Source: Raillietiella orientalis (lineage: Eukaryota). Taken from it: DNA of 20,000 nt. Positions within the stretch are counted from its first letter, which is position 1, and the number at the start of each line of letters is the position of its first letter. The position numbers and the translations under genes are program-made. The stretch covers positions 45,852 through 65,851 of the forward strand of contig JAYWIR010000144.1 in the NCBI GenBank assembly GCA_036172245.1, written 5' to 3'. The notes under the pieces were generated by a model. It saw only the letters and a program-made list of their open reading frames with translations. It searched no databases and was not told the DNA's origin. Shown in pieces: positions 1 to 20,000 of the stretch.

Positions 1-13
1 GGATCTTTCGGAA

Positions 14-3000
14 ATGGTCAGCAGCATCGACCACGTCTTCCTGGATGTCGACCTGTGTTCACGGGTAGGCAAACGGGGGAAAGTTGCGTCGGAGCTGTCT
101 GACCATTTCCGGTTGATATTCGAGGTGTGCCCGCGCGACAAGGGCCCCCCATCCAGGGCGTGGCGTCTGCCTGGGGAATGGACGCGACTCTTAGGTGCGA
201 AGGAACACCTTCGGGAATTCCTGAGAGGCGTCACCATCCGCAATCTCAATGATTGGGACCTTTTTAAGGCCTCGGTCCGCGAGTTTTGCGAGGAGTTCCC
301 CTTGCACCTCCTGCCCCAGGGATTTGGTAAGGGCATCCGTAACGAACGAGCGTACTTGTATGCCCGTCGTTACTCGAGGACCCCCAATGTCCGTCGCCTG
401 GCAGAGTACCGAGCCGGGGCCGAACGTCAAGCCTGGCAATCCGGATCGGCCAGCTTGCTGGACGACCAGGGCCGTAAGCACTCGGCTCCGGCTAGAATAC
501 GGCACCTCGTGCGGCGTTTATATTCCTCCCTTCACGCCAGGGCGCCCCCGGACCAAGATGCCTCTTGGCGCTTGCTTCCGAACGGTGCCCCGGCAATAGG
601 GGAGGAGGAGAAGGAAAGCCTCGACGAGCCTTTTACCACCGGCGAAATTCTCGCCGGTATCAAAAGGCTCAAGAGGCGGAAAGCGCCAGGGGAGTACGGC
701 CTGCCTGCGGAGTTATTTTAATGCTTCGCGGCAGAGTTGGCACCCCTGGTGCTTGAGTTGACAAGGCTGATCCGAGATGAAGGCGATGTACCCGCCTCGT
801 TTCGGTCAGCCAGAGTGAGGCTCCTTCCGAAAGGAGGAGACCTCAGGAAACTCAGCAGCTGGCGTCCGATCACAATTGTGAACACGTACGCCAAGCTGAT
901 CGCCGGACTGTGGGCTTCGCGTCTGGGTCAGGTGGCCAATTCCATAATTAGCCCGGAGCAGAATTACGCTGTTCCCGGGCAAAGTATGGAGGCCAGCCTC
1001 TTGTTCGCGAGCACATGGTTTCATGTGCAGAGTAGTAAAGAAAAGGAAGAGAGAAGGATTGGCAGCCCCGCTTTGGGGGCGTCAGCCGGGCAGGGACAGG
1101 ACTCCCAGGTGGGGAAGGGAGCCCTAGCGATCGCAGCCGATCTGCATAAAGCGTTTGACTGCGTGGACAAGGATCTCCTGCTGGAGCTCCTGGGACGCAT
1201 GGGCTTCCCTCCCTCCCTACTGACCCAGCTGCGCTCTTGCTGGCGCAGCGCGCTGATTAATATCTCTTTCAGAGGTCAAATGGCGTACGGCGTGCCGGTA
1301 CGGCGGAACATACGGCAGGGCGACAGCCTCAGTCCCCTGCTCTTTAGCACCTACTTTGAGTTGGTGCTGAGAGCGTACAGGGTGACTTTGGCCCCCTTGC
1401 CGAGCTCGTGTCCCGGCACGCCCGCCGTTGCAGCGCACGCCGACGATCTTTTGCTTCTGTTGCCGATGTCCACCCCGGCGAAGGCGGTCGGGGATTTCTT
1501 CGATCTGCTTAGCCGCGGGACCGGACTGCAGGTCAACAGGGCGAAGTCGACGGTGGTTCCAGTCGGTGCGGCGTGGGCTGGGCAGATGGACTAAGTCCGC
1601 TTGGAGATCCCCACGGCGAGGTGCTGGAAGTACCTTGGTGTGCCGTTGAAGGACTACCCTCCTGCGGAAGCGTGGTCCGGCTGCCTCCAAAAAGTGGAAA
1701 CGGCGATCGGCCCGTTCCTGGAAGACAAGTTTCTCCTTCCGGAACGGGCCTAGATATGGAACGCGTTCGCGGCTCCTATCCCCTGCCCCCTGCTTTTTGT
1801 TTGCCCCGTCCCCAGAGTGTTGAAAATACGGACGAAGGACCACCTGAGAATTGCTCTTTGGGGAAGAGGGAGGCCCCGAGTCCCGTTGAAGGACTTGTGT
1901 GCTCCACGTCGGGATGGCGGTCTGGGCCTCTTGACGATGGAGCGTTTAGAGATTCAGCTGCGGTGGCGAACCTTCGCCATCGCAGCGAAGTTATGGAGCA
2001 CTTCTTGGTGCGTTCCAGCCCGACTCCTTGCCAGCCGTGTATCCTGGACGGAGGGTCTCGCGTCCTATCTTCTCTGCCGTGGCAAGAAGATCAAGAGATG
2101 CGGACTTCTCCTGGGACGCATGGCAACTCTGGCTAAGGAAAACGGCTGGATAGTATGAAGCCCCGCCAACTCCTCCGCATGTCTGGAGGAGACAGCTGGC
2201 ACGTGGGCGAAGATAAAGCAGCAGAACGGAGAGATGTGGAACTGCGTGCGACGCGGCGCCTATTCCCTCTGCACTCTGCGGAAGATACTCCAGTGTCCCG
2301 CGAGAAGCACGTGGGCAGAGACAACCCCCCTAGCTACGGCAATGCCCTTCCTGAGGAGGGCGCTCTCGAGTAGCCGCAAGCCTAGGTGGCAAGTCTCCTG
2401 TCGCATCGCAGGCTAGGAGAAGTTGATCAGCGGCTGGTCCACGGGTAAACTGGCGGACGCCAGTACCCCTAGTGTCCAGCCGAGAGGACTGCAGAGATGG
2501 GGCGAGCTACTCGGCATCCAGCCGGATGACCTGAAGTGGCCCTCGGTATTAATTGGATCTAGGATCCTCCCCCTGAAGTGGCAGGAGTCGGCGCTTCTGT
2601 TGTTGCATTGGGGTCTACCCTGCAACGCACGCCGTTACCACTGGACCAGGGATCGAGTAGATCCTACCTGCATCAGGTGTGGGGAACGGGAAACTCTCCC
2701 CCACCTCCTTGTTGATTGTGCTGCACTCCGACCCCTGTGGGAACGTCTTCGTGCCTCCCTACGGATCCAGGAGGGCAGCCAGCCCAGAGACGTTTTTCGG
2801 TTTCTGTTCCTGCATGATGCATTGCGTCCAGGCGCTTTTCTGGCTGCACTTTGCTGCGTACGCGGGATTGTGACGTGCTGGAGCAACGTCGGAAGACCGA
2901 GTCACGACAGGGATGCCGTCGTACTTGCAGTCTGCTACCTGCGGTTGGTGACCAGATGGCCCCACGTGGGAATTATACGGACGGACCTCGAGGGCATCCT

Positions 3001-3034: not shown

Positions 3035-3243
3035 TCCTTCCCCAACCCTCCCAAATCTTTTTGTTTTTATGTTTTATTTTTCTTTTTGTTTTTCCCCCCA
3101 CCCCTTTCCGCTGCCGAGGAGAGTCGCGCCGGTCTGCGTACCGGCGACCCGGCAGGTCCAGTTGAGTTGGCCGTAGTGGGGCCTCGTACCACGAATCAAA
3201 GAGAATTTTTAATAAACGCCCCGGCGTGACCGGGTGGCAACAA
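3035..3243 (+). promoter_or_regulatory. 3' UTR of copy 1: C/T-rich tract, nested stem-loop, AATAAA, terminal hairpin
   Basis: CTGCCG(3111)/CGGCAG(3150) encloses CGCCGGT-ctgcgt-ACCGGCG. AATAAA is at 3211-3216 and a CCGG-cgtga-CCGG hairpin at ~3218-3238. Homologous to four other UTRs in the window. Confidence 0.8.
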
Positions 3244-4702
3244 TCAACTTGGCATCCGCATTCACTATTGTGATGGGACGCCAGTTGTTCATGCTCCTCA
3301 GATCTCCTCCCTTAGGGAGAAGCTGCACCTTTGCCGAACGAAACGAGGCGGGAACGTCACCTGTCTCGCGTATCAGCAAGGTGAGTTGATGTACCAGGGG
3401 GGTTAGCTCAGCCGCGAAAGTTTGATAAAACTCCGCGGACAGGCCGTCCTCCCCTGTAGCCTTTCGCCTCTTGAGCTTTCCGATGGCCGAGATGATCTCG
3501 CCCATCGTGAAGGACTCGTCGAGGGACTTTTTCTCTTCTTCCCCGATCGCAAGAGCGCCTTCCGGAAGCAGGATCCGTGAGAAATCCCGCTCGGGAGGCG
3601 TTCTTGCGTACAGGGAGGAGTAAAAACGCCGCAGCAGACCGCGGATCTGAGCGGTTGCCGAATGCTCCTGGCCCTGATCTTCCAGCAAGCTGGCCGATCC
3701 TGACTGCCAGGCTTGCCTCTCGGCTCCCGCTTTGTAATCCGTTATCCTGCGGATGTCGGGGGTCCTGGCGGAACGGCGAGCCTGCAGATAGGCTCGTTCG
3801 TTACGTACCCCGTTTCGAAATCCCGCAGGTAGTCGGTGCAGAGGGAACTGGTCGCAGAACTCCTGGACCGAACGTTTACAGCGGTCTCAATCCTGAAGTG
3901 TCTGCATCCTAAAGCTCCGTATAAACGTGCGGAGATGTTCCGTCGCGTCCGGGAGCTTCTTTCAGTCCCTTGGCAAAGGCCACGCTGACGAGGGGGGGCC
4001 CCTCTCGCGCGGATGGATTTCAAACACGATTGGTCGATGGTCGGACAACTCGCACGGCAACTTGCAGCGCCTGCCCACACGAGTGCACAGGTGTTCGTCA
4101 AGGAACACGTGATCGATGTTGTCCTCCATCCCTGGTACACTGGCCAACAAATTACAAGTGTGCACCGCCGCGCACACCTCGTTGACCAGGTCACGCTCGT
4201 GATTCGTCCCATGCGGTTTCAGACGAACGTTAAAATCGACTGCCACCAGATGGGCATTCCGCACGCCTGCCTCGGTCAACCAGTCGCGATGGAGGGCAAG
4301 GAAAAATTCTTTCGTGGCCCTCCTGTTCGTCAGGTCCGCTCCGCTCGGGGCGTAAACGTTCGTAACGATCAGGTCGATGGAGACGGACCAGCTGAGAGTC
4401 AGCTAGCCGACACGACCGTGATCGTCGAATCGAACTCCACGGGCGGCGGCCTTGATGGCGGGCCGAAGCAGGTAGGAGACACCACAACTTCTCGATGTTC
4501 CACACCGATACCACAGCCGCCCTCCGTAGATGCGTTCGATCGACTGCGCTTGTTCTGCAGAGATCACATGGATCTCCTGCAGCAGCACAAGGTCGAACGA
4601 TCCTAGAATGGCGGCCATGTCTCGTCTCCTGCCGGCGTCTGTCATGCCGTTCACGTTACAAACGGCGATGCGCAGACGACAGCGGGAGGAGATTCCCGGC
4701 AT
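3241..4702 (-). pseudogene. ORF2 N-terminal part (APE endonuclease, linker, first RT motifs), disrupted
   Basis: Track ORFs 4403-4702, 3962-4279 and 3209-3688 are successive pieces separated by stops and frameshifts. Confidence 0.9.
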
Positions 4703-6420
4703 TACTGCCGGGAAGATGACGGTGAGAGGGAACCCGCCTCTTCCGACGCGGGTGAGATGACCATTAAGGTTTCAGCCTCCTCAGGCACCTTGGGTACCTT
4801 TCCTGCTTCAGGCCCCTCCATCTCCTCCGTGTCTGTGGGTGGTGGTCTCTTCGGTGACGATTCCCGGGATTCTCCCACGCTCATGGCATCCTCGCAGTCG
4901 GAAGTGATCTCCACGCCTTCGACCTGGAGAGGGACTTTCCGGGGTTTGCTGGACTTCCTTGCAGCCTTCCGGCGGGGTGCCGCGGAGATGGAAACTTGGT
5001 TTCCGGCCTGCGCTTCGGGGTCGGAAGTTACCGACTCCTCGGTGGAGGCCGGACGCCTCACTGCTTTTTTGCCAGCCTTGAAGGGTTCTGGCGGCAACGA
5101 TGCAGCCAGCTCCTCCGCCGCACGCTCGAAGGCGGCGTCATCGATCACGATCACGATGACGGACGCTTCCGCCGGTTCGTTCCCCACGCTGTTTACATTT
5201 TCAACAGTGGGTTGCTCGTCGGTAGCAGCGATTTCTACCTTGCGGCGTTCGGCGGGGACGCGTTCCACGACGATGCTGCATTCTTTTAAATTCTCGCTAA
5301 CCTGCTGTTTTTTATTTTTGTAGGCGAGCTTTTTTTCAATTCGTCGTTCTTTCTTCGACTTTTTTTTCTTTTTCGCTGTGACTTCTTGCCATTCCCACAC
5401 CTGATCGCTTTTGTCGATCTTTTCGGCATTGGTTGCCGGGGTGTCGGCTGAGGCCTGGACCACGGGAGTGGGTGGCACAGCTTGAGCGGCAGCCTTTGCC
5501 GCCAGTTTTTTCTGTAACAGCCGCGCGCGTTTTTTTAGGTTCCTCGCGGAAACCACGCGCACAGCGGATTGTGGACACACTTCCTTCGTGTGGCCCATTC
5601 TCACGCATACCAGGCACTGTACGTTGGGGCACCTCCTTTTGAGGTGTACCGACGTGTTACAGAAGCCACAGTATTTTGGCTTCCTTACGTACCAGAGGTC
5701 GACGCTTTCTCCGCCGACCACCAGTTTGTGGGGAAGGGTAGAGCCCTCGCGAACAATTACACAAGCAGCCGTGAGGCCGCACTCAACTGTGGTATAGTCC
5801 TCGAAAGGACGAGGCTTGGTCCATACTGCATGGACCGTGCCTTCTTTGCCCAACGCGGCGCGTAACTGTTTATTCCGCATCCGCGCGGTAACTCTTAAAA
5901 GGTGGACCACCATAATGTGGTCCGCCGTAACGGGAAGGAGCCTGCGTGTCTCCATTACCACGGGGGTTTTATGCAGACGTTGGGCCAGATCTGCATGTTG
6001 GCAGATCACCTCTACGTACTGCCCCCCGCTACGAATGGTCATAGCGCAGAGCTCCTTCTCTTTAACATCGAAAGCGCGCATCCCCTTCGAAGAGGCGCGC
6101 GCACTCTCAGAAGAATACAAATTTCCTACCTTGTAGAATAGTGATGGGTGATACCCCTCTTCCACATTGGAAGATTATTCCGCCGCGGCTGCAGGCGATG
6201 GCGCCGACACGACGGCGCTATACGCCCGCGCTGCAGCAAGGACCGGTTTTGTGGGGGCGAACGCCCCCACCTATTTCGCCTCTGAAGGCGACGTTGCCGC
6301 CGCCTCCTGGCACTCCACCTTCTCTACAGGCTACGTTGCCGCCGCCACCTGGCACTCCATTTCTTCAGGAGGCGACGTTGCCACCGCCTCCTGACACGCA
6401 CTGGTGGTCGTGTCAGGCAT
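4702..6420 (-). pseudogene. ORF1 (gag-like nucleic-acid-binding protein, two CX2CX4HX4C knuckles, Lys-rich/low-complexity C-terminus)
   Basis: Knuckles read CGFCNTSVHLKRRC-PNVQ-CLVCVRMGHTKEVC. The frame of track ORF 4702-6165 extends to an in-frame ATG at 6418-6420 (MPDTTTS...) through three stops (6331-6333, 6271-6273, 6175-6177) and aligns with the copy 4 ORF1 N-terminus. Confidence 0.88.
6287..6397. repeat. 42-bp imperfect tandem repeat (~2.6 units) in the ORF1 N-terminus
   Basis: ACGTTGCC recurs at 6291, 6333 and 6375. The minus strand encodes a 14-aa unit resembling CQEAAATSPxExxE. Confidence 0.9.
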
Positions 6421-6504: not shown

Positions 6505-8670
6505 CTCTAGCCGACGTAAAGCTTTCGACTGCGTCGACCAGGAGCTACTTCTGGAGCTACTGGAACGCTTGGGATTTCCGGCCGTCTTCCTGGCCTACCT
6601 GCGCTCCTGCTTGCGCTTCGCGCTTATCAATATGAATTTCAGCGGCCGGCACGTGTTCGGCGTGCCGGTTCGTCGTGGCATCCAGTAGGGTGACAGCCTA
6701 AGCCCCCTGCTCTTCAGCATTTACTTTGAGTTGGTGCTGAGAGCATACGGGGAGACTTTGGCAACCCTGCCTAGCTCGTGCCCCGGCACGCCTGCCGTGT
6801 CGGCCTATGCCGACGATCTTCTGCTCCTGCTTTCCGGGTCCACCCCGGCATCCGCGTTCTAGGATTTCTTTGACGTGCTATACCGTGGGACAGGTTTCCA
6901 GCTAAACAGGTCGAAGTCGTCGTTGCTTCTCACCGACTCTACGAGGGCCGGACGGTCGGACTGGATCCGCTTGGGGATCCCCACGGGCAGGTACATCAAG
7001 TACCTTGGCGTTTTGTTGAGGGACTTCTGCTCTGCAGAAGCCTGGTCCGACCGTCTACAAAAAGTGGAGCTGGCAATCGGCCCGTACCGGGACGGCAAGT
7101 TTCACTTGAAGGAACGGGCCACGGTATGGAACGCTTTCGCGGCCCCCCTCCTTCTCCCCCTACTTTTTGTGTGTCCTATCCCGTACCAAATCAGGACACG
7201 GACTAGGGGCCTTATACGGAAAGCCCTCTGGTGCAACCGGAAGCCCCGCGTCCGGCTCAAAGACTTGTGCGCTCCAGGCAGCGACGGTGGACTTGGTCTC
7301 CTGACGTTGGAGCGCATGGAGCGACAGCTCCAATTCAGAAAACTTGCCCTTGTGGCAAAGTTTTGGACAGCACCCTGGTGTGCAACGGCAAGACTCCTTG
7401 CTCACAGGGCAACCGGCGGCTTTGGATTGACTTCAATCCTGGTAGCCAACGAACGCAGCCTGAACCATTGTGGTTATCAGCTGCGGGATTTGGTTGCCCT
7501 TCTGAGAGACAACTCTTGGATCTCCTGCATCCCAGCAGACTGGACTACCTGGATTCAGGACTCCGTTTCCGCATGGGCGAAGATCAATGGCACCAGCCAT
7601 GAGGACCTCTCCTGTCTCCGCAGAGGGAGGCACGCTGGTCAACCACTGCAGGAGATCGCCCGCAGCCCACGGAAGCTTCTGTGGGCCTCCTTCTCCCCTC
7701 TTGCCCCGGTGCTGCCCTCCATCAGGGAAGTTCGGGACAGCCAGCAGGAGGCATCGTGGGGAGTGTACTGCCTCATCGGAGGCAGGAAGAAATCACTGAA
7801 GGCGTGGACGCCGAGGGAACTAGCGGACGCTAGTACCCCGAGTGTCCCGCCGAACGGACTTTTAGGCTGAGGCGCGCTGCTCGAACTATCTCCAGAGGAG
7901 GTAAAGTGGCCCCCAGCGTCATGGGACAACGGCACCCTTCCTCTGCAGTGGCAGGAGACGGGGTTGCTTCTGCTCCACTGGGCACTTTTAAGCAGAGCAC
8001 GCCTGTCTCGCTGGACAACAAGAAATGTGGATGCTAGTTGTGCACAGTGCGGGGAAAGGGAGACCTTCCCTCACTTGATTCTGGAGTGTGTTGCCCTCCG
8101 CGAAATGTGGGAAAGACTCTCGTCGATCCTCAACATTTCGGAGGGTGACCCAAAAATTTTATTCAGACGCATTCTGACGCGAGAGGGCTTGTCAGCCTCC
8201 GGGAGCGTAGCAGTACTCTGCTGCATACGCGGTATCCTGGAGAAGTGCACCGCGTCTAGGAGAGGAAGGACCAGCCGGAATGCCATCCACTGGGCAGCGA
8301 TCTCCTTGGAGAAAGCGTGCCGTTGGCGCCGACTTCAAAAACATTTGCCAGCACTTGTTCGCATCCGAAACCGGATGCTAAGGCCTGCTCACGGCGCACC
8401 GTGATCTACTCCCTCCCTTCCCCTCCCCAAAAAAACATTGCCCTCCAGGCGTTTTTCTTTTTTTTGTTTTTGTTTCCTTTCATTTTTCCCTTCCCGGTGC
8501 CAGTGAAGGAACTTATCGGCCTCCGAGTCGATAGGGACAAGTGCTACTGAACTTCTGAACTGAACGTCTGACGTCGTAAAAAGGAAAATTTTAACAACAT
8601 AAACTTTATTACAAAATTTTGTAATGTTAAAATTTTAGTATTTAAAGCCCCGGCTTACCCGGATGAAAAA
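6505..8670 (+). mobile_element. Copy 3: 5'-truncated LINE (RT from KAFD onward, C-terminal zinc finger, 3' UTR)
   Basis: KAFDCVDQELLLELL at ~6519, GDSLSPLLF, intact YADDL (~6806), KYLGV, CAQCGERETFPHLILEC and a stop at 8404. The UTR ends in a CCGG-cttac-CCGG hairpin plus A5. Confidence 0.93.
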
Positions 8671-11160
8671 CCTGCGACAGGAGACGTGAGGCCCACGTCT
8701 CCCCAACCTATGGAGGTGGGGTCATGCCCCACCAGAAAATCAGCCCCCGCCACCCCGGCGAGGGCGTGAAACAAGGTGGCAGCGGCGGCTCCGCCGGACG
8801 TGGCCGCCGAAGTACAGGCATACATAAAGGAAAGCTACAACCCTGCCCTCCTTTACAAGGTAGGAAATCTTTATTCTCCGCTTACCACGCGGAAATTTGG
8901 AAACGCCATCCGTGGGATAGGAATCTCTGACGAGGAGATAATTTGCTTCTCGATTCGGAGCGGCAAGCAGTTCGCGGAGCTGATCTGCAAAGATGCAGCG
9001 CTCACACACAAACTGCTCTGAACGCCCGTTCCGTTCGAAGGGCGGAATCTCCTCCCACACACGGTGGATCACTCTTTGGTGATCCACCTCACTGGAACAA
9101 CGGTGCGGATGACCGAGGAAGCCATAGGCACTGAAATCAACAAGTTCGCGGAGATCTACGCGATGTGGTCGAAGCCCAACGCCTTTACTTATCGAGGCGC
9201 ATTCAGTGGGCGAGTAGCCGCACGCGTAACTCTCCGCGAAAACAAAGAACTTCCCCACAAGCTGGAGGTCAACGACGAGCTCGTCGACCTCTGGTACGTG
9301 GGGAAGGAAAAATACTGTGGGCTGTGCAACACATTCGGGCATCTTAAAAAGAGATGCCCGGATGCCACATGCCCAACCTGCGGCGCGAAGGGCCACACTA
9401 GTGCTGTGTGCCCGAAAAATACCGCGACAACGGCTTCAGCCCCTTTAACAAATGGGGGGAAGAGGGCAGAAAACAAAAAAACGAGCGACCAGCAGCTGAC
9501 CTCAGAAGAAGTCGTGCAGAAGGAGCAGGAGCCTCAAGAGAAGACTTCTGAGCCAACTGCCGACGAGGAAAACTGGAAAGTCGTTTCAAACAAAAAAGGA
9601 AAAGAAACACACAAAAAAACAAAAACTCCAAGAAAAAATCATAATAATACAAATCAGAACGCGAGGGTTCCCAAAAAACCCGCGGTCGGCAAACCAAAAA
9701 TTTTGCCGCGCGAGTCCATAAAGGAATGCCGCGTTACAAGCGAGCGCGTTCCGTCGATCGAGCGTCGATCGGCGAACGCGACTACCGCAACCGTCGCGAA
9801 CGCCGCGGAACCGCCGTAGGAATCCTGCGACAAACACGCGAGCAGCAGCGACGAGAAAAACTTCGCGAAGGCGGCAGAGGAACTAGCGGCCACCTTAATG
9901 CAGCCGCCTAAGCCTGCAAAGAAGGCCGTCAGACGTCCGGCGGAAGTTAAGGGCCCGGAAACTTCCGGGTCCGAGGCGGAATTCGGAAACCCTCCCACCG
10001 TCGCCCTTCCGAAGAGTAATGCGGGCCGGAAGTCGCGCAACCCTATGCGCGTCTCTCCCCCTCAGGCTGAGGAGGAGGAGATGCGCTCGGATAGCGAGGA
10101 GGCGATGTACACGAGGTCGCGGGATCCGTCTATCGACAGCATCCCGTCGGTCCTTCCTATCGACCTCATTCCGGATGCAGACGTTCCGGTCGTTGCCGAA
10201 ACGCCACCACCGCAGATGGACAACGATCATCCGCTTCCCGAACAGGAGGCGGCAATACGCACGCCACCACCATCATTAGTATGATGCGTGGAATCGCCTC
10301 TTGCCGGCAGCTGCGTAAAGTCTGTTGGAATGTCAACGGGCTGCGTAGCGAAAGCAAGAGGCGTAGCGTGGCCGACACCCTGCGACCTTTCGACCTGGCA
10401 CTTCTCCAAGAGGTGCATGCCCTCAGAGCAGAGGACGTCCAGGAAATCGAGAGGCTCACAGGGAGGAGGCTACTTTGGCGTGGTGGAGGAGACCACTCCC
10501 GTGGAGTGGCCTTCCTGCTGAAGCCGGCCGTCGCCAATGCGGTGCGCAGAGCACAGTTCGACGAGGAAGGTCGAGTAGGACAACTTGTACTCAAGTGGTC
10601 CGAATCGATCGACCTCGTAGTTACGAACGTGTACGCGCCCTGCACCACCCACAGGCGCGCAGAAGGCACTGCGTTCTTGGAAGCCCTGCGGCGAGACTGG
10701 CTGGCCGAAGCAGGCGTGCGGCGAGCGCATCTGATAGCGGGAGACTTCAAAGTCCGCCTGCTGTCGGAAGCACCCGACATAAGAGCACAATTGGTCAACC
10801 AGTTGTGTACGGCTATGCACACACGCAACTTGTTAATCGATGAAGCCGGGGTGAGAAGCAGAATCGACCACGTCTTCCTCGATAACCACTTGTGTACGCG
10901 GGTGGGGACTCGAGAAGCAATTGCGTCGAAGCTGTCCGATGACCCTCGGCTAGTAATCAACATCCATCCGCGCGACAGAGGTCCACCCTCCGAAGCGTGG
11001 CGCCTGTTCGGGGACTGGTTGCGACTCGCAGGAGCACGCGAACACCTGCGCGCATTCCTGAGTAGTTGTAAATTGCAGACTCTCGCTGACTGGGACAAAA
11101 TAAAACGCTCAGTCCGAGTGTTCTGTGACCAGTTTCCCCTCCATCAACTTCCTCCAGGAT
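8671..11160 (+). mobile_element. Copy 4: ORF1 + complete APE endonuclease, truncated just after EN
   Basis: ORF1 pieces 8776-9021, 9064-9819 and 9898-10284 share one frame and contain CGLCNTFGHLKKRC-PDAT-CPTCGAKGHTSAVC. ORF2 has WNVNGL, LQEVH, NVYAP, GDFK, RIDHVF and SDD. Confidence 0.93.
10284..11160 (+). pseudogene. ORF2 APE endonuclease domain, open frame but truncated (track ORF 10281-11189 reads into the next fragment)
   Basis: All canonical APE motifs occur in order, but the catalytic GDFN and SDH read GDFK and SDD. Confidence 0.88.
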
Positions 11161-12450
11161 CTCGCTGTGTCCTTGCAGCGTTCCCTTAAATCCGCGAAAA
11201 AGGCCTTAGAACGTCCGAAATCGATCAAGAAGTCGAAGATTCCGAACTCTGACGCAGAACCGGAAAACAGCCTGCGACATCGCGGCCTCTCGCTCGAAGG
11301 CCCTTCGCACGAAAAAGGATAACCCCAAAATTATCTCGTCCGCCAAAAAGGGAGAGATAATCGAGAGAAGCAAGCGTGCGAAGAAAGTGAAGAACTCAGG
11401 GGACTCTCCTAGAGAGGTAACCTCATGCTGCGACCCCGGAGGGAGGGAAAGGGTAGAGTCTGTGCCCCAGGTGCTTCAAGAGCTGGAGATAGCCGCGGTT
11501 TCCTTCCTCGTCCCTCCCACCTGTCCCTTGACAAGTGCTGCAACGACACGTTCCCAGCATTAATGCCGGGAATCGCCTCTTGCCGCCGTTTGCAAATTGC
11601 CTGTTGGAACGTCAGTGGGCTAAGCGACGACGGCAAGAGACGAGACGTGGCCTCCACCCTGGCATCGTTCGACCTGGTGCTGCTGCGAGAGATCCACCTG
11701 ATCTCCGCAGACCAAGCAGCGGGGATCGAGCGTATCTCGGGTGGACGGCAGCTGTGGCGTTGCAGCACCGTTAAATCTTGAGGTGTCGCGTTCCTGCTTC
11801 GTCCAGCTGTCGAGGCTGCGGCAAACGGCGTACGGTTCGATAGTGCCGGTCGCGTTGGGCATTTGACCATCAGGCTGTCCGACTCCATCGATCTGGTCAT
11901 TACGAACCTGTACGCACCAAGCGGTAGCGTCGCGCTAAGGACAAAGGCAAGGAAAGATTTTTTCTTTATTCTGAGACGCGAATATCTGGACAAAGCCGGA
12001 GGGCGCAAAGCGAACCAAATCGCAGGTGACTTTAAACTTCGCCTGCTGTCAGGTGCGTCCGACACACCTAGGGACCACGTGAACAAGCTGTGCGCAGAGA
12101 TGCACACGAGCAGCTTGTTCGCGGGAGATAGGGAAATGGCCGACAGCATAGATCACGTGTTTCTTGAACAGCACCTACGCTCACCCGTGGGGAGGCGCGG
12201 CAAGTTACCGTCGGAACTGTCGGACCATGACCGGATCGTACTCGAGGTGCGCCTACGCGATAGGGGTCATCCGTCATCTGCGTGGCGCTTACCGAAGGAC
12301 TGGATAAAACTCTTGAAAGCCGCGGAGCATCTTCGCCGATTCATACGAGGTTTCAGCTTGCAAATGCCTCAGGACTGGGACCGCTTCAAGCGCTGGGTCC
12401 GGTGGTTTTGCGACGAGTTTCCTATGAACCTTCTGTCTGCCTGGTTTAGT
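11155..12450 (+). mobile_element. Copy 5: ORF1 C-terminus + APE endonuclease, truncated at both ends
   Basis: QDLAVSLQRSLKSAKKALERP matches EELAATLMQPPKPAKKAVRRP of copy 4. TAATG lies at 11561, followed by WNVSGL, NLYAP, GDFK, SIDHVF, SDH and WFCDEFP. Confidence 0.9.
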
Positions 12451-14195
12451 GTTGCAAACTGTGTACGCTTGGGGCATTTATTCAGAAAAAACTCTCTATA
12501 ATTCGTAGTATAAGTCCCACTGTGTCCTTAGTCACGCGACCTGTCGGGACACCGGGAAGTATCCCGGCGTGGCACTCCTCGACAGCGGAAAAAGATGGAG
12601 AAAAAAACAAAAAGCAAAATTAAAGAGATAAATAAGCAAAAAAAAAAATTTGGAGGGCAGGAAGGTGATGATCGGACGCTGTAAGGAGGGCTCATCCGTC
12701 AAAGGGAGCCCTTGAGGTCTGTCCGCATACTTCTTAGATGGGGCCATCAAGCAGCTCTCCGCAAGAAGCGTACTGCGTGCTGGACGACTTCCCTCTGGTT
12801 CCAATCTACATCTTCGCTGCTGGCATCGCTCCAAGGCGCCACAATGCCTCGAACGCAGCACAGGACCGCGACGGCGGCTGCTGGCTGCAGGGCGTCCCGC
12901 ACGAAGAGCAGGCGGAAAACGTCTCTCGATGAACTGCCCGTAGGGTGCCCGAGGGTCGTCCTCAACCTTGCCCAGAGGGGTCGGAGGGCATGACAATCCA
13001 GTATAAGGTAGAAAAGCGACTCCCGCTTCCCGAACTTGGCACACTCAGGCCTTACACTTCCCCGCGTCCAGTGGAAGCGGTGCGCGTTGCAGGGTAGACC
13101 CCAGTGCAACAGCAGGAGCCCCGTCTCTTGCCACTTTAGAGGGAGAAGCCTGGATCCGATGAGTACTGAGCACGCGGGAGGGCTCTAGGGGTCGTGGCGT
13201 CTGCCAGTTCTCCCATGGTCCAACCGCTTATCCTTTTTTCCTTTCCTGCAATTCGGCAGGAGACATGCCACTTTGGCATCCAGGCTCTGGTTGAAGCCCT
13301 CCGTAGGAAGAGCAGCGTCAAAGCTCAAGGGATGGTCTCCGCTTACGTGCTTCTGCCGGGACACTCTAGGGTGCTCCGTAGGGTGCAGCCGGCGTTGGGG
13401 CCGAATCACAAGCGGTTCCAATTTTCGGTTCGTGGGTTGTTCAGCTTGGCCTATGTCGCAACGGATTCCTCCAGCTAAGCGTAGGAGTTGGCGTGGCTGC
13501 ATATCGTTTAGCCGTTTTCCCTCACCCGGTTTTGGATGCGTCCATGGAGAAGGCCGCATCTCCTGACTTTTCGGCCGAGATACAGAAGGAAAGACACGAG
13601 TCCATGCGTTCTGGATACACGGTTGTCGAGGATGCGGCCCGGAGCGCACCAGAGGGTGTTTCATGTCTTTGCTACGATAGCGAGGGTGCGCCATCGCAGC
13701 TGTATGTCCAGGCGCTCCAACGTCAGGGGGCCAAGATCTTCGTCACGACGCATAGTGCACATGTCCTTAACAAACTCACGAGGCCTCCCGCTGCCCCAGA
13801 TGGCGATGCGGAGAAGGCCTTTTGTCCTCTTCTCCAAGTCACGGGGGACAAGGCACACAAAGAGCAGGAAGCGAAGGAAGAAAGCAGCGAACCCGCTTCA
13901 CACGGCAGTCCGTTAAGGCAGAAGAAACTTGCCTTCCAGGAACGGGCCGATTGACAACTCTACCTTTTGGAGACGACCTGACCAGGATTCTGCGAGTCAA
14001 AAGTCCCCCAACGGGACACTCGGGTACTTCAGGTACTTGACCGTGGGGATTCCTAAGCGAATCCAGTTAGGCCGTCCAGCCCACGTCGCACCCACCGATA
14101 CCACCGACGACTTCGCCTTCTTTACCTGCAGTCCATTCTCACGGCTCAGCAGGTCAAAGAAATCCTCGACTGCGACTGCCGGGGCGGACATGAGC
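12449..14195 (-). mobile_element. Copy 6: 5'-truncated LINE (late RT/thumb, C-terminal domain, 3' UTR)
   Basis: DFFDLLSRENGLQV, WIRLGIPTVKYLKY, LGPLTLERLDIQLRW and HWGLPCNAHRFHW match copy 1. The minus-strand UTR has AATAAA at 12477-12482. Confidence 0.92.
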
Positions 14196-14204
14196 GGCCC
14201 GCTT

Positions 14205-14520
14205 TCTAAGGATGACGACGCGAAGGCCCCATCTGACATCCACCATACAGCAACAGCTTGCCGTCATACTCCACAGGATCACGGACAGTGATCCCAGCAG
14301 ACAGTGTTCCCTTCCCGTAACTTCCCCAGTTTTCTTTATTTCTTTGTTTACTTTTGTTTCGTTTCCCCTCCCCTCGGCTTCCGAGGTCGACCGTTCCGGT
14401 CTGCGCACTGGAAGCCTGGCAGGCTCAATGTTTCTAAGTCGTGGCTGCACTACTGATCCAGTCACAGGTTGTATGGGTTTATTTTAGAAAATCAACGTTT
14501 CGGCGAACCGGGTTTCAATT
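14205..14520 (+). mobile_element. Copy 7: ~315-bp 3'-end fragment (last ORF2 codons + 3' UTR)
   Basis: TTRRPHLTSTIQQQLAVILHRI resembles the copy 1 C-terminus VTRWPHVGIIRTDLEGILRRM. It is followed by a T-rich tract, a TTCCGGT-ctgcgc-ACTGGAA hairpin and the terminal TTCGG-cgaa-CCGGG. Confidence 0.8.
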
Positions 14521-15140
14521 CAATTTCTGGAGCGTGACGCCTCCCAGGAATTCGCGAAGGTGTTCCGTCGCACCTGAGAGTCGCTTCCAGTTACCCGGCA
14601 GACGCCATTCCCAGGATGGCGGTCCCTTGTCGCGAAGCCGCATCTCGAAATTCAACCGGGAATGGTCCAACAACGTTGACGCAACTTTCCCTTGTTTGCC
14701 GACCCGCAAACAAAGGTCTGTGTCGAGGAAGACGTGGTCGCTGCTGCGGACCATTCCCTTCTCACCCGCGAACAAGTTGCGCGCACGCATGGCGGCGCAC
14801 AACTCGTTCAACGCGTTCACTTGTGTTTCCGGCTCACCTGTTAGCAGGCGAAGATTGAAATCTCCCGCTATCAGGTGAGCCTTTCGCACGGTCCTTTCCG
14901 CCAGATAGTCGCGTTTCAGGGTTTGCAGCAACCTGTTTCCTCAGCTGTTGCCCTGCTTGCCGTTGGGGGCATACACGTTTGTGACGATCAGATCGATCGA
15001 GTCGTACCACCTGAGAATCGGCTGGTCGACTCGACCGTCGTCATCAAAGAGTACGCCCTTCACATCAGTGTCGATGGCTGGCTTGACGAAGAACGCGATC
15101 CCGCAGGTACTGCGGGCGCGGCATTGCCAGTGCAACCGAC
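14518..15140 (-). mobile_element. Copy 8: internal APE endonuclease fragment
   Basis: Contains CGIAFFVKP, NVYAPNG, GDFN, SDHVFLDTDLC and EHLREFL. Confidence 0.9.
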
Positions 15141-16290
15141 GATGGACTGCAGCGTTATGGTCCATGTCACTGGTATTATTAGCTTTATGACGCTGTCTGC
15201 GTTCAATGGCGAGCTAAAGAAATAAGATGTGCACGCGTTCTGGCCGAAACGCAGGATTTTCTATGGATATGACAGCCTATTTGGGGTACAGACAGCAGCG
15301 CGTGTTACAGTGCATGAGGGTGGTGCGCTGCTTCACAAACTCGAGGTCTGCTAAGAATCGGTAGGCCTCTAACACGTAAAGAAACCCCTTTTTTTTAACT
15401 CTTTCCATGCAATAGAGCACTTACGTAAAAGTTGCCCGCACATTGTGTGCCACTTAAGCGGAGAAAAGGGTCACATGCGCCGTGTGTGCCCTAAGCGCCC
15501 CACTCCAGTGCCGCCTGCTTCCTAAAAGACGCTGGCAACACGAGGAAAGTTGGTTTAAAGACCAAATACAGAATCTGGTCTACAGAAGCTGCAAGCCACC
15601 CTTCCTCCCACACAGGCGTCGGAAGAAAAAACTTCCGAAGACGCGATAGACGAGGTGGGTTGGCAGCTGGTTGACGCCAGAAAGGAAAAGCCTTAAAAAA
15701 AGGCATCAGTCGAAGAGGAAAAGGTCGCGACCGACGCGCGAAAAACGAAAAAGTCGCGTCCGAAAAAACTCTGTCAGTGCTCGGTTGCACTGGAGCGCGT
15801 AGACGTTCCGGTGGCACTGGAGCGCGTAGACGTTCCGGTGGCACTGGAGCGCGTAGACGTTCCGGTGGCAGCCACCCGGGACGACAAGCCTCTCCTCGCC
15901 GCTTCCGCTGTGCCGGAGATTTCGGACTGCGAATTCTCTGTTTACACAGAGAGTGAGACGCGCGACGCGCTTGCCGACGTTGAGGATGTGGACGCGTTCG
16001 CGAAGGCGGTGGAGGAGCTCGCGGCCACGCTGGCCGAGCGTGAGAATCCCTCGCGCAAGGCAGTGCGAAGGCTGGCTCCGCCCAAGAAGGCCCACGCAGG
16101 TGAGTTCGACCTGGGGTTCGGAAGCACATCTCCCTCGTTGGAAGCACCCCTCGGAATGCGGGACGTAAGTTCCAATAGCCGAAAAGGGGCCTCCCTCCAC
16201 CAGCGAGGAGGAGAAGCAGGAAGTAGACGGCAGCCTAAGAATCCTGGAGGGGGAACTCCCACACTCGAAAGTCGTCGAGCAGGCCACCCC
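15135..16290 (+). mobile_element. Copy 9: heavily decayed ORF1 fragment
   Basis: MDCSVMVHVTG resembles VDHSLVIHLTG. Degenerate knuckles read HLRKSCPHIVCHLSGEKGHMRRVCP (~15418-15493). AFAKAVEELAATL..KAVRR is also present. Confidence 0.85.
15787..15870 (+). repeat. Perfect 27-bp tandem repeat x3 (encodes ALERVDVPV)
   Basis: GCACTGGAGCGCGTAGACGTTCCGGTG occurs at 15787, 15814 and 15841. Confidence 0.97.
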
Positions 16291-17086: not shown

Positions 17087-18120
17087 GGAAACGGAAGTTC
17101 CGCACCTACCCTTTTACCCTGTTCCGGACAAGGAATAGCATTCTGCAGGCATTCTGTGAGCTTTGCCGTTAATTGTGTGTCCTACCTGAGAGATCGGCGG
17201 CTTGCTGTTCGGAGAAGGCGTGTATCTTCAGCTGCAGGACCAGATGGAACTTCACGCAGTACGTGAGTCAACAACCGCCTATTATCATCAACCTGCAACC
17301 CGTTGACGTTTCAGCAGATCATGAGGACGTGACGAAAGGATACGAGCTTACTTATTACTGCTGCGGAAATGGCGGCGCTTCCCCCGCCTCGTCCGGCGAG
17401 GCATCAGGCTGGAGCGCGTCGTGTTGGGGAGCGCAACCGCACTCGTTCTCCTGCACGCCGCGCGCGGCGCTCTCTTTGGAGTCAAAGAATACTGTCCTGG
17501 ACTTAGAGGATTATCGAAAACCGTTCGCGGCATCTGGCTTCCTCCTGGAAACTTTGGGTTTCCGCGCACTCCAAGGTTTCCAAAGGGCTTGGGGAACCTT
17601 TGTGCTGCCATCGGACTCCAACTCTGAGTCGAAATTTCGTGTGCACGATAAATGTTTTTTCTACCTGCTCTTTTGCTGGCATCTTGGACGTGCTCCAAAA
17701 TTCAGCGAGGGTGCCACCGTCGACGATCCCCCTCTTAAGGTCTCGGCGTTGTCAACTTCCCTTTCGGGGCAGGCGGCACCGACCGCGCACTCAACCGCAG
17801 CGGAAACTTTTTCCTGCGAATTCCTTGACGTACGGGGATGCCTCCTCACCCCTCCTACTTTTCGGATGGGTAAATGGGAAGGATCTTTTGTTTTTCTCTG
17901 TTTCTTCTCCGCTTCCCCCTACAAGAATCCAGACGGCTTCTTCGTCTTTCAGGTTGCCTCGGCTCGATACGAGGGCCTTTCGAATTATTCCCGTTGGGCT
18001 ATGAAAGCCAGTTGCTTTCTCGCTACCTTTGCCTTTTGCACGTTCTTATCGCAAGGTACGGACAAATTCGCAGGATTCTTGAGAGTCGAGCGAGGCTTAG
18101 GAGTCTTTCCCGACTAACGA
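17085..18120 (-). mobile_element. Copy 13: very decayed ORF1 C-terminus + EN N-terminus
   Basis: The minus strand reads IC*NVNGL, FHLVLQLKIHAFSEQQAADL and LFLVRNRVKG*VRNFRFH (EN). TAATA at 17353-17357 is in exact register with TAATG of copy 2. The upstream low-complexity frame is ORF1-like; the right boundary is set by the composition shift. Confidence 0.75.
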
Positions 18121-19034
18121 CTCGCTAAGGACGGACTGTCTTCACATTTTGCACTTAAAGGATGTTATATGTGAGGTAGGCAAAAGAAGGATATGTGTAA
18201 ATTGCGTATGTTAAGACTGGAAATGCAGAATTCTATGATAAAACTGTTGAATGTAAGGAATCGTTTGTGCACATAAGTTCATGCAAGCGGGATTCGGAAT
18301 TCATTTGAAGATTGAATGGGTGTATCTTTTAATATTGCTAATAAAGATGGTCTGAATATCAGTGCAGATTAAGTGCAGAAAAAAGAGTTGAAGGATCAAA
18401 TGCAAAGAAGCTTGAAATTATTATGATCATGTTAATTGTAAATAATCGGTGGTTGTGGTGGCGGATGATGATAATTAATGTCATAGTAAACAAAACCCTA
18501 TAAGAGAAATGGATAATGGCGATAGAATAATTGTTAGTAAACAGTTAGCTATTATGAAAATCAACGATCTAATTAATAATTTAAGTAGATCTTTAAATAG
18601 ATATTTTAATTTGAGTTTAAATGTTTGACATTATAATAACATCCTCAAACAAACCAGTCAACTATTTATCAAAAAATGCACACAACCAGTTGTTTCGATT
18701 ATAAAGGAATAATAAGAAAATATGACAACTGTAAGATAAAATTCGAAAACATAAAAAAATGAAACATGTTTTCAAATGCACAAAAGACAGAAAATGTAGC
18801 ATCGATATCTTTGGAAGATATCAGTTCTGTGCGGGATGCGGAATCGAGAACGTAAACGAGGATAGAAGAAGTCCATTTAATTCTGCTTTTATCGCTAGAT
18901 CGGCACATATGGACCTATAAAGAAAGGGTACCTGTGCAACAAGCTTCTTATTTAGAATAATTCAAAATTCCAAAAAAAATAAACAGCAAAATGCAAAGAC
19001 TTTATTCTACTCGAATTAAATAATAATAACACTT

Positions 19035-19914
19035 CTAGTCAGTTAAGCCCTTCAACTTTACAGTGAATGTCGTTCCAGCTGTCCATGTGCATATCAGTTT
19101 GCTAGGTACAGGCTTCACATTCCGGCCTCGACGGAGCCTAAAAAAATTCCCAGGCATTTGTTCGGAATCGAAAGTTATCCATTAAAATACGGGAAAGCAT
19201 TCATAGGATAGAAAACCTTGCTTCCGCAAATTACATTCCTGCCAGAGGATGTGAGAAAGAAGGAGCAAGGAGAAGTTTGAAATAAATAATTGCAAACTCA
19301 CTCTCTCCGAAAAATTTCTGAAACCTGTGCTAATTCACACAAAAATTTTACATAACAGAGATGCACACAAATCAAAGAGATATTCCCGTTAACGCATTTT
19401 GTATAAAGAACAGAAGAAAGTAGAAACGACTTCTAGACAATGCTTTCCAAGAAGCCATGCACAACAGTAGGGGTCTTAAGGATCTATGTATTCTATTGCA
19501 ATGAGGCCAGAAGCAAAAGCTACCAAACTGAAAAGAAGAATGCACAAAAATACATACGTTTCAACTCTCCCAGAAAAAGTTAAAGAACAAGAACGGTCTG
19601 GTCCCTCAAGGAAGAAATTAATCTGCTCAGAAGCACGAGGTCCCTGCACCTGAAATCAAAAAATATTTGCGGCTCTGATAAAATTTACTCACCTCAATGT
19701 CCAAACTGCAACGACTTCTTGGTGCAGGATGTTTACGATTACTCAGCCACACTTCACAATTAGTTCCAGTGTTGTCAAAATAAAGAAGGCACGGTCCTGT
19801 CTGACTTGTAAAATACAGCTGATCTTCTATAATCCTATCCTCATTTAAAGTGACGTTATTACACAGAGAGAGACATTGACTACCCCTACTACAGAAGAGA
19901 AGAACAATGGATAC
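19035..19914 (-). CDS. Probable spliced host gene (3' part), small Cys-rich, possibly secreted protein of unknown function
   Basis: Exon 19693-19914 is 74 codons without a stop after a TTTTTTGTAG acceptor. A 43-nt intron 19650-19692 reads GTGAGT..TTTCAG. Exon 19558-19649 is open only in the matching phase and ends at a GTATGT donor. A phase-compatible terminal exon 19035-19137 follows TTTTTTTAG, with AATAAA at 19001-19006. Splicing within 19138-19557 is unresolved. Confidence 0.6.
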
Positions 19915-20000
19915 CTACAAAAAACCAACTCTCAGTGAAATGGTAACAACCGGAAATAAAAACGAAAAGCAGATTGCGCAGAATTGAGCAAGCAGTTTGA

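Follow-up and report, generated by a model that had tools for sequence, protein, structure and literature searches.

The 20,000-nucleotide stretch of Raillietiella orientalis DNA analysed here (contig JAYWIR010000144.1, positions 45,852 to 65,851; hereafter the window) carries damaged copies of a retrotransposon family without long terminal repeats (non-LTR), in which the APE-type endonuclease (EN) at the start of the second open reading frame (ORF2) is trimmed at two places. Missing from every copy in which the region can be measured are the strand carrying a conserved Thr, the adjoining betaB6-betaB5 hairpin and a separate loop that in human L1 EN holds R155. On the evidence of the sequences and of a predicted structure, we put at roughly 0.7 the probability that this family-wide trimmed EN, lacking the Thr strand, the hairpin and the R155-type loop, was the working form of the enzyme.

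Two deletions in the endonuclease

EN sequence is retained in the following copies, each listed with its position, strand and visible damage:

10281–10967 (+): copy c4, ORF2 start (MMRGIAS) and complete APE-type EN domain, identified by translation, PF03372 and an AlphaFold2 model
4013–4702 (−): copy c2, EN with an in-frame stop at 4405–4403; VDFN; IDHVF at 4117–4103; SDH kept
11563–12252 (+): copy c5, EN with an in-frame stop at 11779–11781; GDFK; IDHVF at 12148–12162; SDH kept
14638–15141 (−): copy c8, EN 5′-truncated at about EN residue 62, with an in-frame stop at 14943–14941; GDFN; SDHVF at 14742–14728; LDH replaces SDH
2–130 (+): copy c1, C-terminal end of the EN only, cut by the window start; IDHVF at 26–40; SDH kept

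Copy c1 shows only ...DLSEMVSSIDHVF at 2–40, so the length of the segment discussed below is not measurable there. The EN of c4 matches PF03372 at 43.2 bits (cutoff 24.5, E = 4.9e-11) over profile positions 3–210 of 225. Scored against 1.84 billion representative proteins, it gave 248 matches at E ≤ 0.001, and relatives were drawn from the best 150 of these 248. GDFN-like and SDH motifs and a suitable length were present in 64 of the 150, and 63 were aligned with the window pieces using MAFFT (alignment A1).

The spacing from GDF[NK] to IDHVF is exactly 123 nt in all four measurable copies. Between the catalytic Asp positions equivalent to L1 D145 and D205 the window copies have 40 residues (4/4), as opposed to 59–70, with a median of 62, in all 63 relatives. 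The segment before IDH contains 13 residues in the window copies and a median of 26 (range 24–30) in the 63 relatives, and the segment after GDFN contains 14 residues compared with a median of 23, corresponding to a deletion of about 9 residues. The total deficit relative to human L1 EN, calculated from phmmer coordinates, is 19 residues, and phmmer against PDB sequences puts the gap at query residues 177–185 opposite residues 177–203 of human L1 EN.

The first-pass annotation of this DNA had described the segment before IDHVF as uniformly short, and the constant spacing bears this out, as does direct translation, which recovers the quoted peptides as HTRNLLIDEAGVRSRIDHVF in c4 (+), CNLLASVPGMEDNIDHVF in c2 (−), SSLFAGDREMADSIDHVF in c5 (+) and RNLFAGEKGMVRSSDHVF in c8 (−). 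The interval it gave in c4, 10818–10871, falls in the right place, with a trivial displacement of 6 nt upstream of the actual peptide at 10824–10877, within which IDHVF occupies 10863–10877. Its figure of about 13 missing residues fits the segment before IDH but understates the total, as the second deletion of about 9 residues, and with it the loss of the R155-type loop, was missed, along with the lapses at catalytic positions described below. Common sharing of the short segment by described L1/Tx1 families finds no support among the 63 aligned relatives, none of which has it.

Column by column, the two deletions remove positions that are strongly conserved elsewhere. The [TS] column, equivalent to L1 T192, is T or S in 63/63 relatives and a gap in 4/4 window copies. 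The shared shortness is more than chance. Other columns lost before IDH are the NP turn, a [YF] position (55/63) and a [WFY] position (59/63), and the W (54/63) and R (59/63) that relatives carry just upstream of the gap are changed to L or F and to I or A, respectively, in the window copies. At the other deletion, the D154-type column is D in 62/63 relatives and the R155-type column is R or K in 53/63, and none of the four window copies has either column. Two residues beyond the N or K of GDF[NK] the four window copies share an invariant Arg, at a position where relatives have V, C or T; this Arg could conceivably take over a phosphate contact. The shortened parts lie as follows:

10830–10862 (+): c4, short linker LLIDEAGVRSR, joining the helix-proximal TRN strand to the IDHVFL strand and replacing the WRxxNP turn, the [YF][TS][WF] strand and the hairpin; the MAFFT gap falls between codons 10842–10844 and 10845–10847
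10740–10778 (+): c4, GDFK strand and shortened loop VRLLSEAPD; the MAFFT gap falls between 10766 and 10767
12025–12063 (+): c5, corresponding shortened loop after GDFK
4240–4202 (−): c2, corresponding shortened loop after VDFN
14865–14827 (−): c8, corresponding shortened loop after GDFN

One of the 64 relatives, P0135, stood out for a short GDFN-to-SDH distance (69). It keeps FTH...SRID and lacks the preceding helix, is probably a gene-model artefact, and was excluded from A1 and from A4, the alignment used in the structural comparison.

Predicted structure and the role of the missing elements

The AlphaFold2 model of the c4 EN, computed with A1 as the alignment, has a predicted local distance difference test score (pLDDT) of 90.9 and a predicted template modelling score of 0.88, with pLDDT values of 88–93 over residues 171–190. 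In the PDB it matches human L1 EN best (Foldseek E = 1e-16, template modelling score 0.78–0.80). When aligned to 1vyb_B with VIA-align, 210 of 233 residues superpose with a Z score of 26.2 and a root-mean-square deviation of 2.1 Å, and the four-layer alpha/beta sandwich is retained. As a control, the relative P0006 was modelled from the same sequence set (pLDDT 91.6), and 233 of its 236 residues align to 1vyb_A with a Z score of 30.6.

Comparison of the DSSP assignments of the two models side by side, through A4, reveals several elements of P0006 without a counterpart in the window model: helix 159–162 in the D/R loop, helix 191–195 in the WRxxNP motif, and strands 204–206 and 209–211, which form the Thr strand and the hairpin. 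The window model has a 12-residue linker with one helical turn between the short TRN strand and the IDHVFL strand. T174, within an HT motif conserved in 3/4 copies, sits in the short strand right before this linker. Between residues 177 and 188 of the c4 model no strand pair is predicted, that is, no equivalent of betaB6-betaB5. The first-pass claim that the conserved Thr and this hairpin are absent from every copy holds for each measurable copy, given the [TS] gap and the model, which retains no equivalent hairpin.

In human L1 EN, T192 and S202 anchor the hairpin, and a hydrogen-bond chain of T192, D205 and H230 is required for stability of the protein (PMC1950540, Repanas et al. 2007). Hairpin residues 193–202 put P197 and H198 into the minor groove, widening it; a cleft formed by the hairpin together with the alphaB1-betaB3 loop accommodates the nicked strand from +1 to +3; phosphates +2 and +3 receive two hydrogen bonds from R155; and N147 lies 2.9 Å from the scissile phosphate (PMC8565326, Miller et al. 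2021). Judged by these roles in L1 EN, the two protein elements that hold on to the DNA immediately downstream of the nick are both gone from the window family.

Catalytic positions

Read from its sequence, the family EN is a trimmed APE/EEP nuclease that keeps the positions of N14, E43, Y115, D145, N147, D205, D229 and H230, with lapses in single copies (L1 numbering, in part after PMC1950540 and PMC8565326). In the window rows of A1, N14 and E43 are each kept in 3/3 copies and Y115 and D145 in 4/4, as are D205 and D229, each of which reaches 5/5 with c1 counted. The N147 equivalent is N in c2, in c8 and in 63/63 relatives, and K, encoded by AAA in both cases, in c4 (10749–10751) and c5 (12034–12036). 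The H230 equivalent is kept in 3/4 copies, or 4/5 with c1, and is D only in c4 (10941–10943). These changes may postdate insertion or may be traits of the lineages.

Selection on the short form

Pairwise Nei–Gojobori comparisons of the window copies (6 pairs, 155–233 codons) give proportions of differing sites of 0.58–0.70 for synonymous (pS) and 0.26–0.33 for nonsynonymous positions (pN). The ratio pN/pS is 0.45–0.55 in 6/6 pairs, none of which has a 95% bootstrap upper bound above 0.69; restricted to the 68 codons from GDFN to SDH, it is 0.39–0.53, with no upper bound above 0.74; and Jukes–Cantor-corrected ratios are 0.21–0.36, all of these being approximate since synonymous sites are near saturation. 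Protein identity between the copies is 47–58%.

The copies diverged under purifying selection, the shortened part included, and for that reason the short EN was probably functional in active ancestors, the loss being older than the copies. This agrees with the first-pass proposal that active ancestors already carried the loss. Because decay after insertion pushes the ratio towards 1, constraint in active lineages was stronger than the measured ratios indicate.

The element family in the window

About 17 kb of the window (1 to about 16800) consists of at least nine fragments of one non-LTR family in alternating orientation, as traced by six-frame reading and a tblastn map made with the window's own open pieces. 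This map and Pfam give the family order as ORF1 followed by ORF2, the latter with APE EN, linker, reverse transcriptase (RT) and a C-terminal Cys/His motif. The RVT_1 match in ORF2 scores 64.2 bits (cutoff 29.6), zf-RVT scores 20.9 bits (under its cutoff of 27.5), and the CCHC knuckle matches in ORF1 are weak (20.1 bits, cutoff 22). The C-terminal CxxC...H...C motif is found at 2669–2719 and 8039–8089. By sequence, the window is best read as a nest of decayed copies, comprising several anciently diverged sub-lineages of one L1/Tx1-like non-LTR family.

The sole relatives from within the family found outside the window are P0005, a 106-residue N-terminal fragment, and P0155, an RT fragment without EN that is 69% identical to the window RT; outside the family the nearest RT relatives are 22–30% identical. 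Further searches for EN homologues gave three weak matches in the nearer search (P0002, P0003 and P0004) and one weak match in the longer search. P0002 shows the full T motif; P0003 and P0004 are fragmentary and lie outside that region. In the metagenome scans, patterns from alignments of the EN C terminus (A2) and N terminus (A3) matched 122 and 556 stretches, respectively, and tblastn confirmed none of them. Protein Atlas returned generic EEP clusters only.

ORF2 starts with a conserved M(R/P)GI(A/S)S motif. In the longer form M(R/P)GI(A/S)S(C/S/R)R it occurs at 10281–10300, 4711–4690 (−) and 11560–11580, and also in P0005; ORF1, in another frame, ends right there or overlaps it. Such a position points to a fixed ORF1/ORF2 junction, perhaps with re-initiation or overlap. 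Copies c8 (EN) and c6 (late RT to 3′ end) share a strand (14191–15141, −), with the short c7 fragment between them, and may be either two copies or a single element that lost about 1.2 kb where c7 inserted.

Two tandem repeats were found, one of 27 bp × 3.3 (98% matches) at 15782–15870, within an ORF1 fragment, and one of 42 bp × 2.7 at 6286–6397, in the 5′ region of c2. The GC content falls abruptly at the cluster's edge, from 52–60% inside (about 54% near the edge) to 34–39% in the AT-rich sequence from ~18100 (18100–20000). The flanking ORFs beside the cluster have no Pfam match above cutoff and include no recognisable gene, and an Rfam scan of the window gave no match (no rRNA, snRNA or other family).

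3′ ends, junctions and clustering

At four places the inside of ORF2 is abutted by the 3′ end of a copy on the other strand: c1 onto c2 (~3240), cx onto c4 (~11164), c6 onto c5 (12449/12450) and c7 onto c8 (~14518). The interruption of c2 falls within the RT, and the other three are located as follows:

11160–11170: c4 ORF2 break, ~107 residues after the start of the post-EN reference, followed by sequence like a diverged opposite-strand 3′ end (cx), the identification of which is weak
12445–12455: c5 ORF2 break, abutted by the 3′ terminus of opposite-strand c6 (...GTTTGCAACA)
14514–14523: c8 ORF2 break, ~25 codons upstream of the c4/c5 site, abutted by the 3′ end of c7, a plus-strand fragment of the 3′ untranslated region (UTR) at ~14290–14518

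The breaks in c4 and c5 fall at homologous ORF2 positions that agree to within about 4 nt. Because these two copies are strongly diverged, with 65% of synonymous sites differing and a pN/pS of 0.50, their breaks at the shared site look like independent hits. The recurrent site may reflect site-preferred insertion into the family's own sequence, in a sample that is small and includes the doubtful cx.

The 3′ UTRs are conserved between copies, at 3040–3242 (+), 12660–12450 (−), 14290–14518 (+) and 8440–8671 (+), and each contains a tract rich in pyrimidines or T, a box resembling CCGCTGCCGAGGAG, a signal of the AATAAA type and a short GC hairpin (GCCCCGGCG-like). The 3′ ends of c1, c6 and c7 finish in G(T/G)(T/G)(T/G)CAA(CA), with no poly(A) or A-rich tail at any of them; perhaps such a tail was lost, or perhaps the elements never had one. 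The 42-bp tandem repeat of c2 (6286–6397) also contains a motif resembling the 3′ terminus (GGTGGCAAC). A CWGG-like motif lies ~10 nt from five junctions and is suggestive only, given n = 5, a junction uncertainty of about 4 nt and the choice of the motif after the data had been seen.

Comparison with known endonucleases and elements

Human L1 EN (PDB 1vyb, 7n8s) is like the window EN in its fold, its catalytic positions and its place at the N terminus of ORF2 ahead of the RT (phmmer E about 1e-5). Identity is about 22%, and the window EN differs in lacking the T192 strand, the betaB6-betaB5 hairpin and the R155 loop. Among the engineered L1 EN loop variants L3G, LR1 and LTx, L3G, in which the loop is changed to three glycines, is the nearest described analogue of a loop-less EN of a long interspersed nuclear element (LINE) (PMC1950540). 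L3G is man-made and retains the T192 strand, whereas the window family lost the strand too and shows signs of selection. A natural LINE EN with a shortened hairpin, discussed for its cleavage specificity, is described in a 2018 study of the plant RTE clade (PMC6007223); unlike the window EN, it is only 2 residues shorter and keeps the hairpin and the anchor residues.

As for the clustering, the Zepp and ZeppL L1-type LINEs of green algae form clusters by nested self-insertion, with frequent 5′ truncation (Craig et al. 2021, PMC8226300), and the window copies, some of them truncated, may likewise be nested. The window 3′ ends differ in having no poly(A) run. A search of open-access literature, judged from its listings and passages, found no natural LINE EN without the hairpin or the Thr strand. 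Within the open-access text searched, this EN variant is previously undescribed.

Weighing the readings

If the trimmed EN was the working form, nicks made by the enzyme would still prime reverse transcription, but the protein would touch the DNA far less downstream of the nick. The choice of target would then depend on something else, such as other parts of the ORF2 protein (ORF2p), pairing of the RNA 3′ end with the target or chromatin context, and a shift in target choice would fit the apparent nested, self-directed insertions of the window. A bolder form of this reading, in which a minimal APE nuclease is active without the Thr strand, the hairpin and the R155 loop, and target choice has passed to other machinery that directs new copies into a specific site in older family copies and so builds the cluster, is doubtful, and we offer it tentatively.

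Several points weigh against the view that the short EN was at work in this family. None of the window copies is intact. There is one EN stop each in c2, c5 and c8, and the c4 EN is without a stop but carries K in place of N147 and D in place of H230. No EN sequence spanning the shortened region was found outside the window, either among the best 150 of the 248 matches from the 1.84 billion representative proteins, or in the RT search, or in the metagenome scans. In the L1 context, losses of the loop, T192 and R155 are harmful: L3G has 0% retrotransposition and 10% nicking, T192V has 5% retrotransposition and an unstable protein, and R155A has 12% retrotransposition and 19% nicking (PMC1950540). 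An AlphaFold2 model is no proof of a stable or active protein, the saturation noted above blurs the selection ratios, and selection on the coding sequence could equally reflect a structural role of the domain within ORF2p rather than nicking.

This last point leads to the alternative that survives best, namely a domain that is under selection and no longer chooses or cuts the target, integration proceeding by pre-existing nicks or ends or by a host nuclease, with the EN serving as a structural part of ORF2p. The disappearance of both elements that grip DNA downstream of the nick would fit such a role, as would the K found in 2/4 copies at N147, a contact of the scissile phosphate in L1 EN (PMC8565326), and the piling up of copies in one place, which elements that use breaks or ends tend to show. 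However, D145, D205, D229, E43, Y115 and N14 are kept in every copy that covers them, which would be unexpected for a purely structural domain at such divergence, and a directed nick is suggested by the 3′ ends that meet other copies at a recurrent internal site. We regard this alternative as unlikely.

Less probable still, and disfavoured, is a dead domain, on which view a single inactive copy suffered the deletion and was then duplicated at the DNA level, its duplicates decaying into the copies seen now. All copies are damaged and lie side by side, and deletion of the loop and T192V abolish, or nearly abolish, retrotransposition of L1 (PMC1950540), as this account would have it. Neutral decay, however, predicts a pN/pS near 1, far from what 6/6 pairs and their upper bounds give; the catalytic positions are conserved at 47–58% protein identity; and truncation points and orientations differ between copies. 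Finally, an artefact of alignment or reading frame, with the Thr strand and hairpin encoded in some other way, is effectively refuted because the spacing is fixed at 123 nt, continuous in one frame in 4/4 copies with no room for 13 or more extra codons: the gap falls in one and the same region by phmmer with L1 EN, by MAFFT with 63 relatives and by the structure comparison, and although T174 of the HT motif, just before the linker, could pass for the YT motif, in the alignment the HT motif stands opposite the L-x-D of relatives, which precedes their W-R motif.

Implications

The value of the trimmed EN as a case is limited by its source, which is decayed copies in one window and a predicted structure. 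The hairpin and T192 are treated as fixed anchors of LINE ENs, and altering either kills human L1 in the laboratory. If the short EN was indeed the working form in this family, the APE scaffold would tolerate far more trimming than thought. It would also offer a natural system in which to ask what part of a LINE protein chooses the target, a question that matters for self-targeting, cluster-forming elements and for re-targeting.

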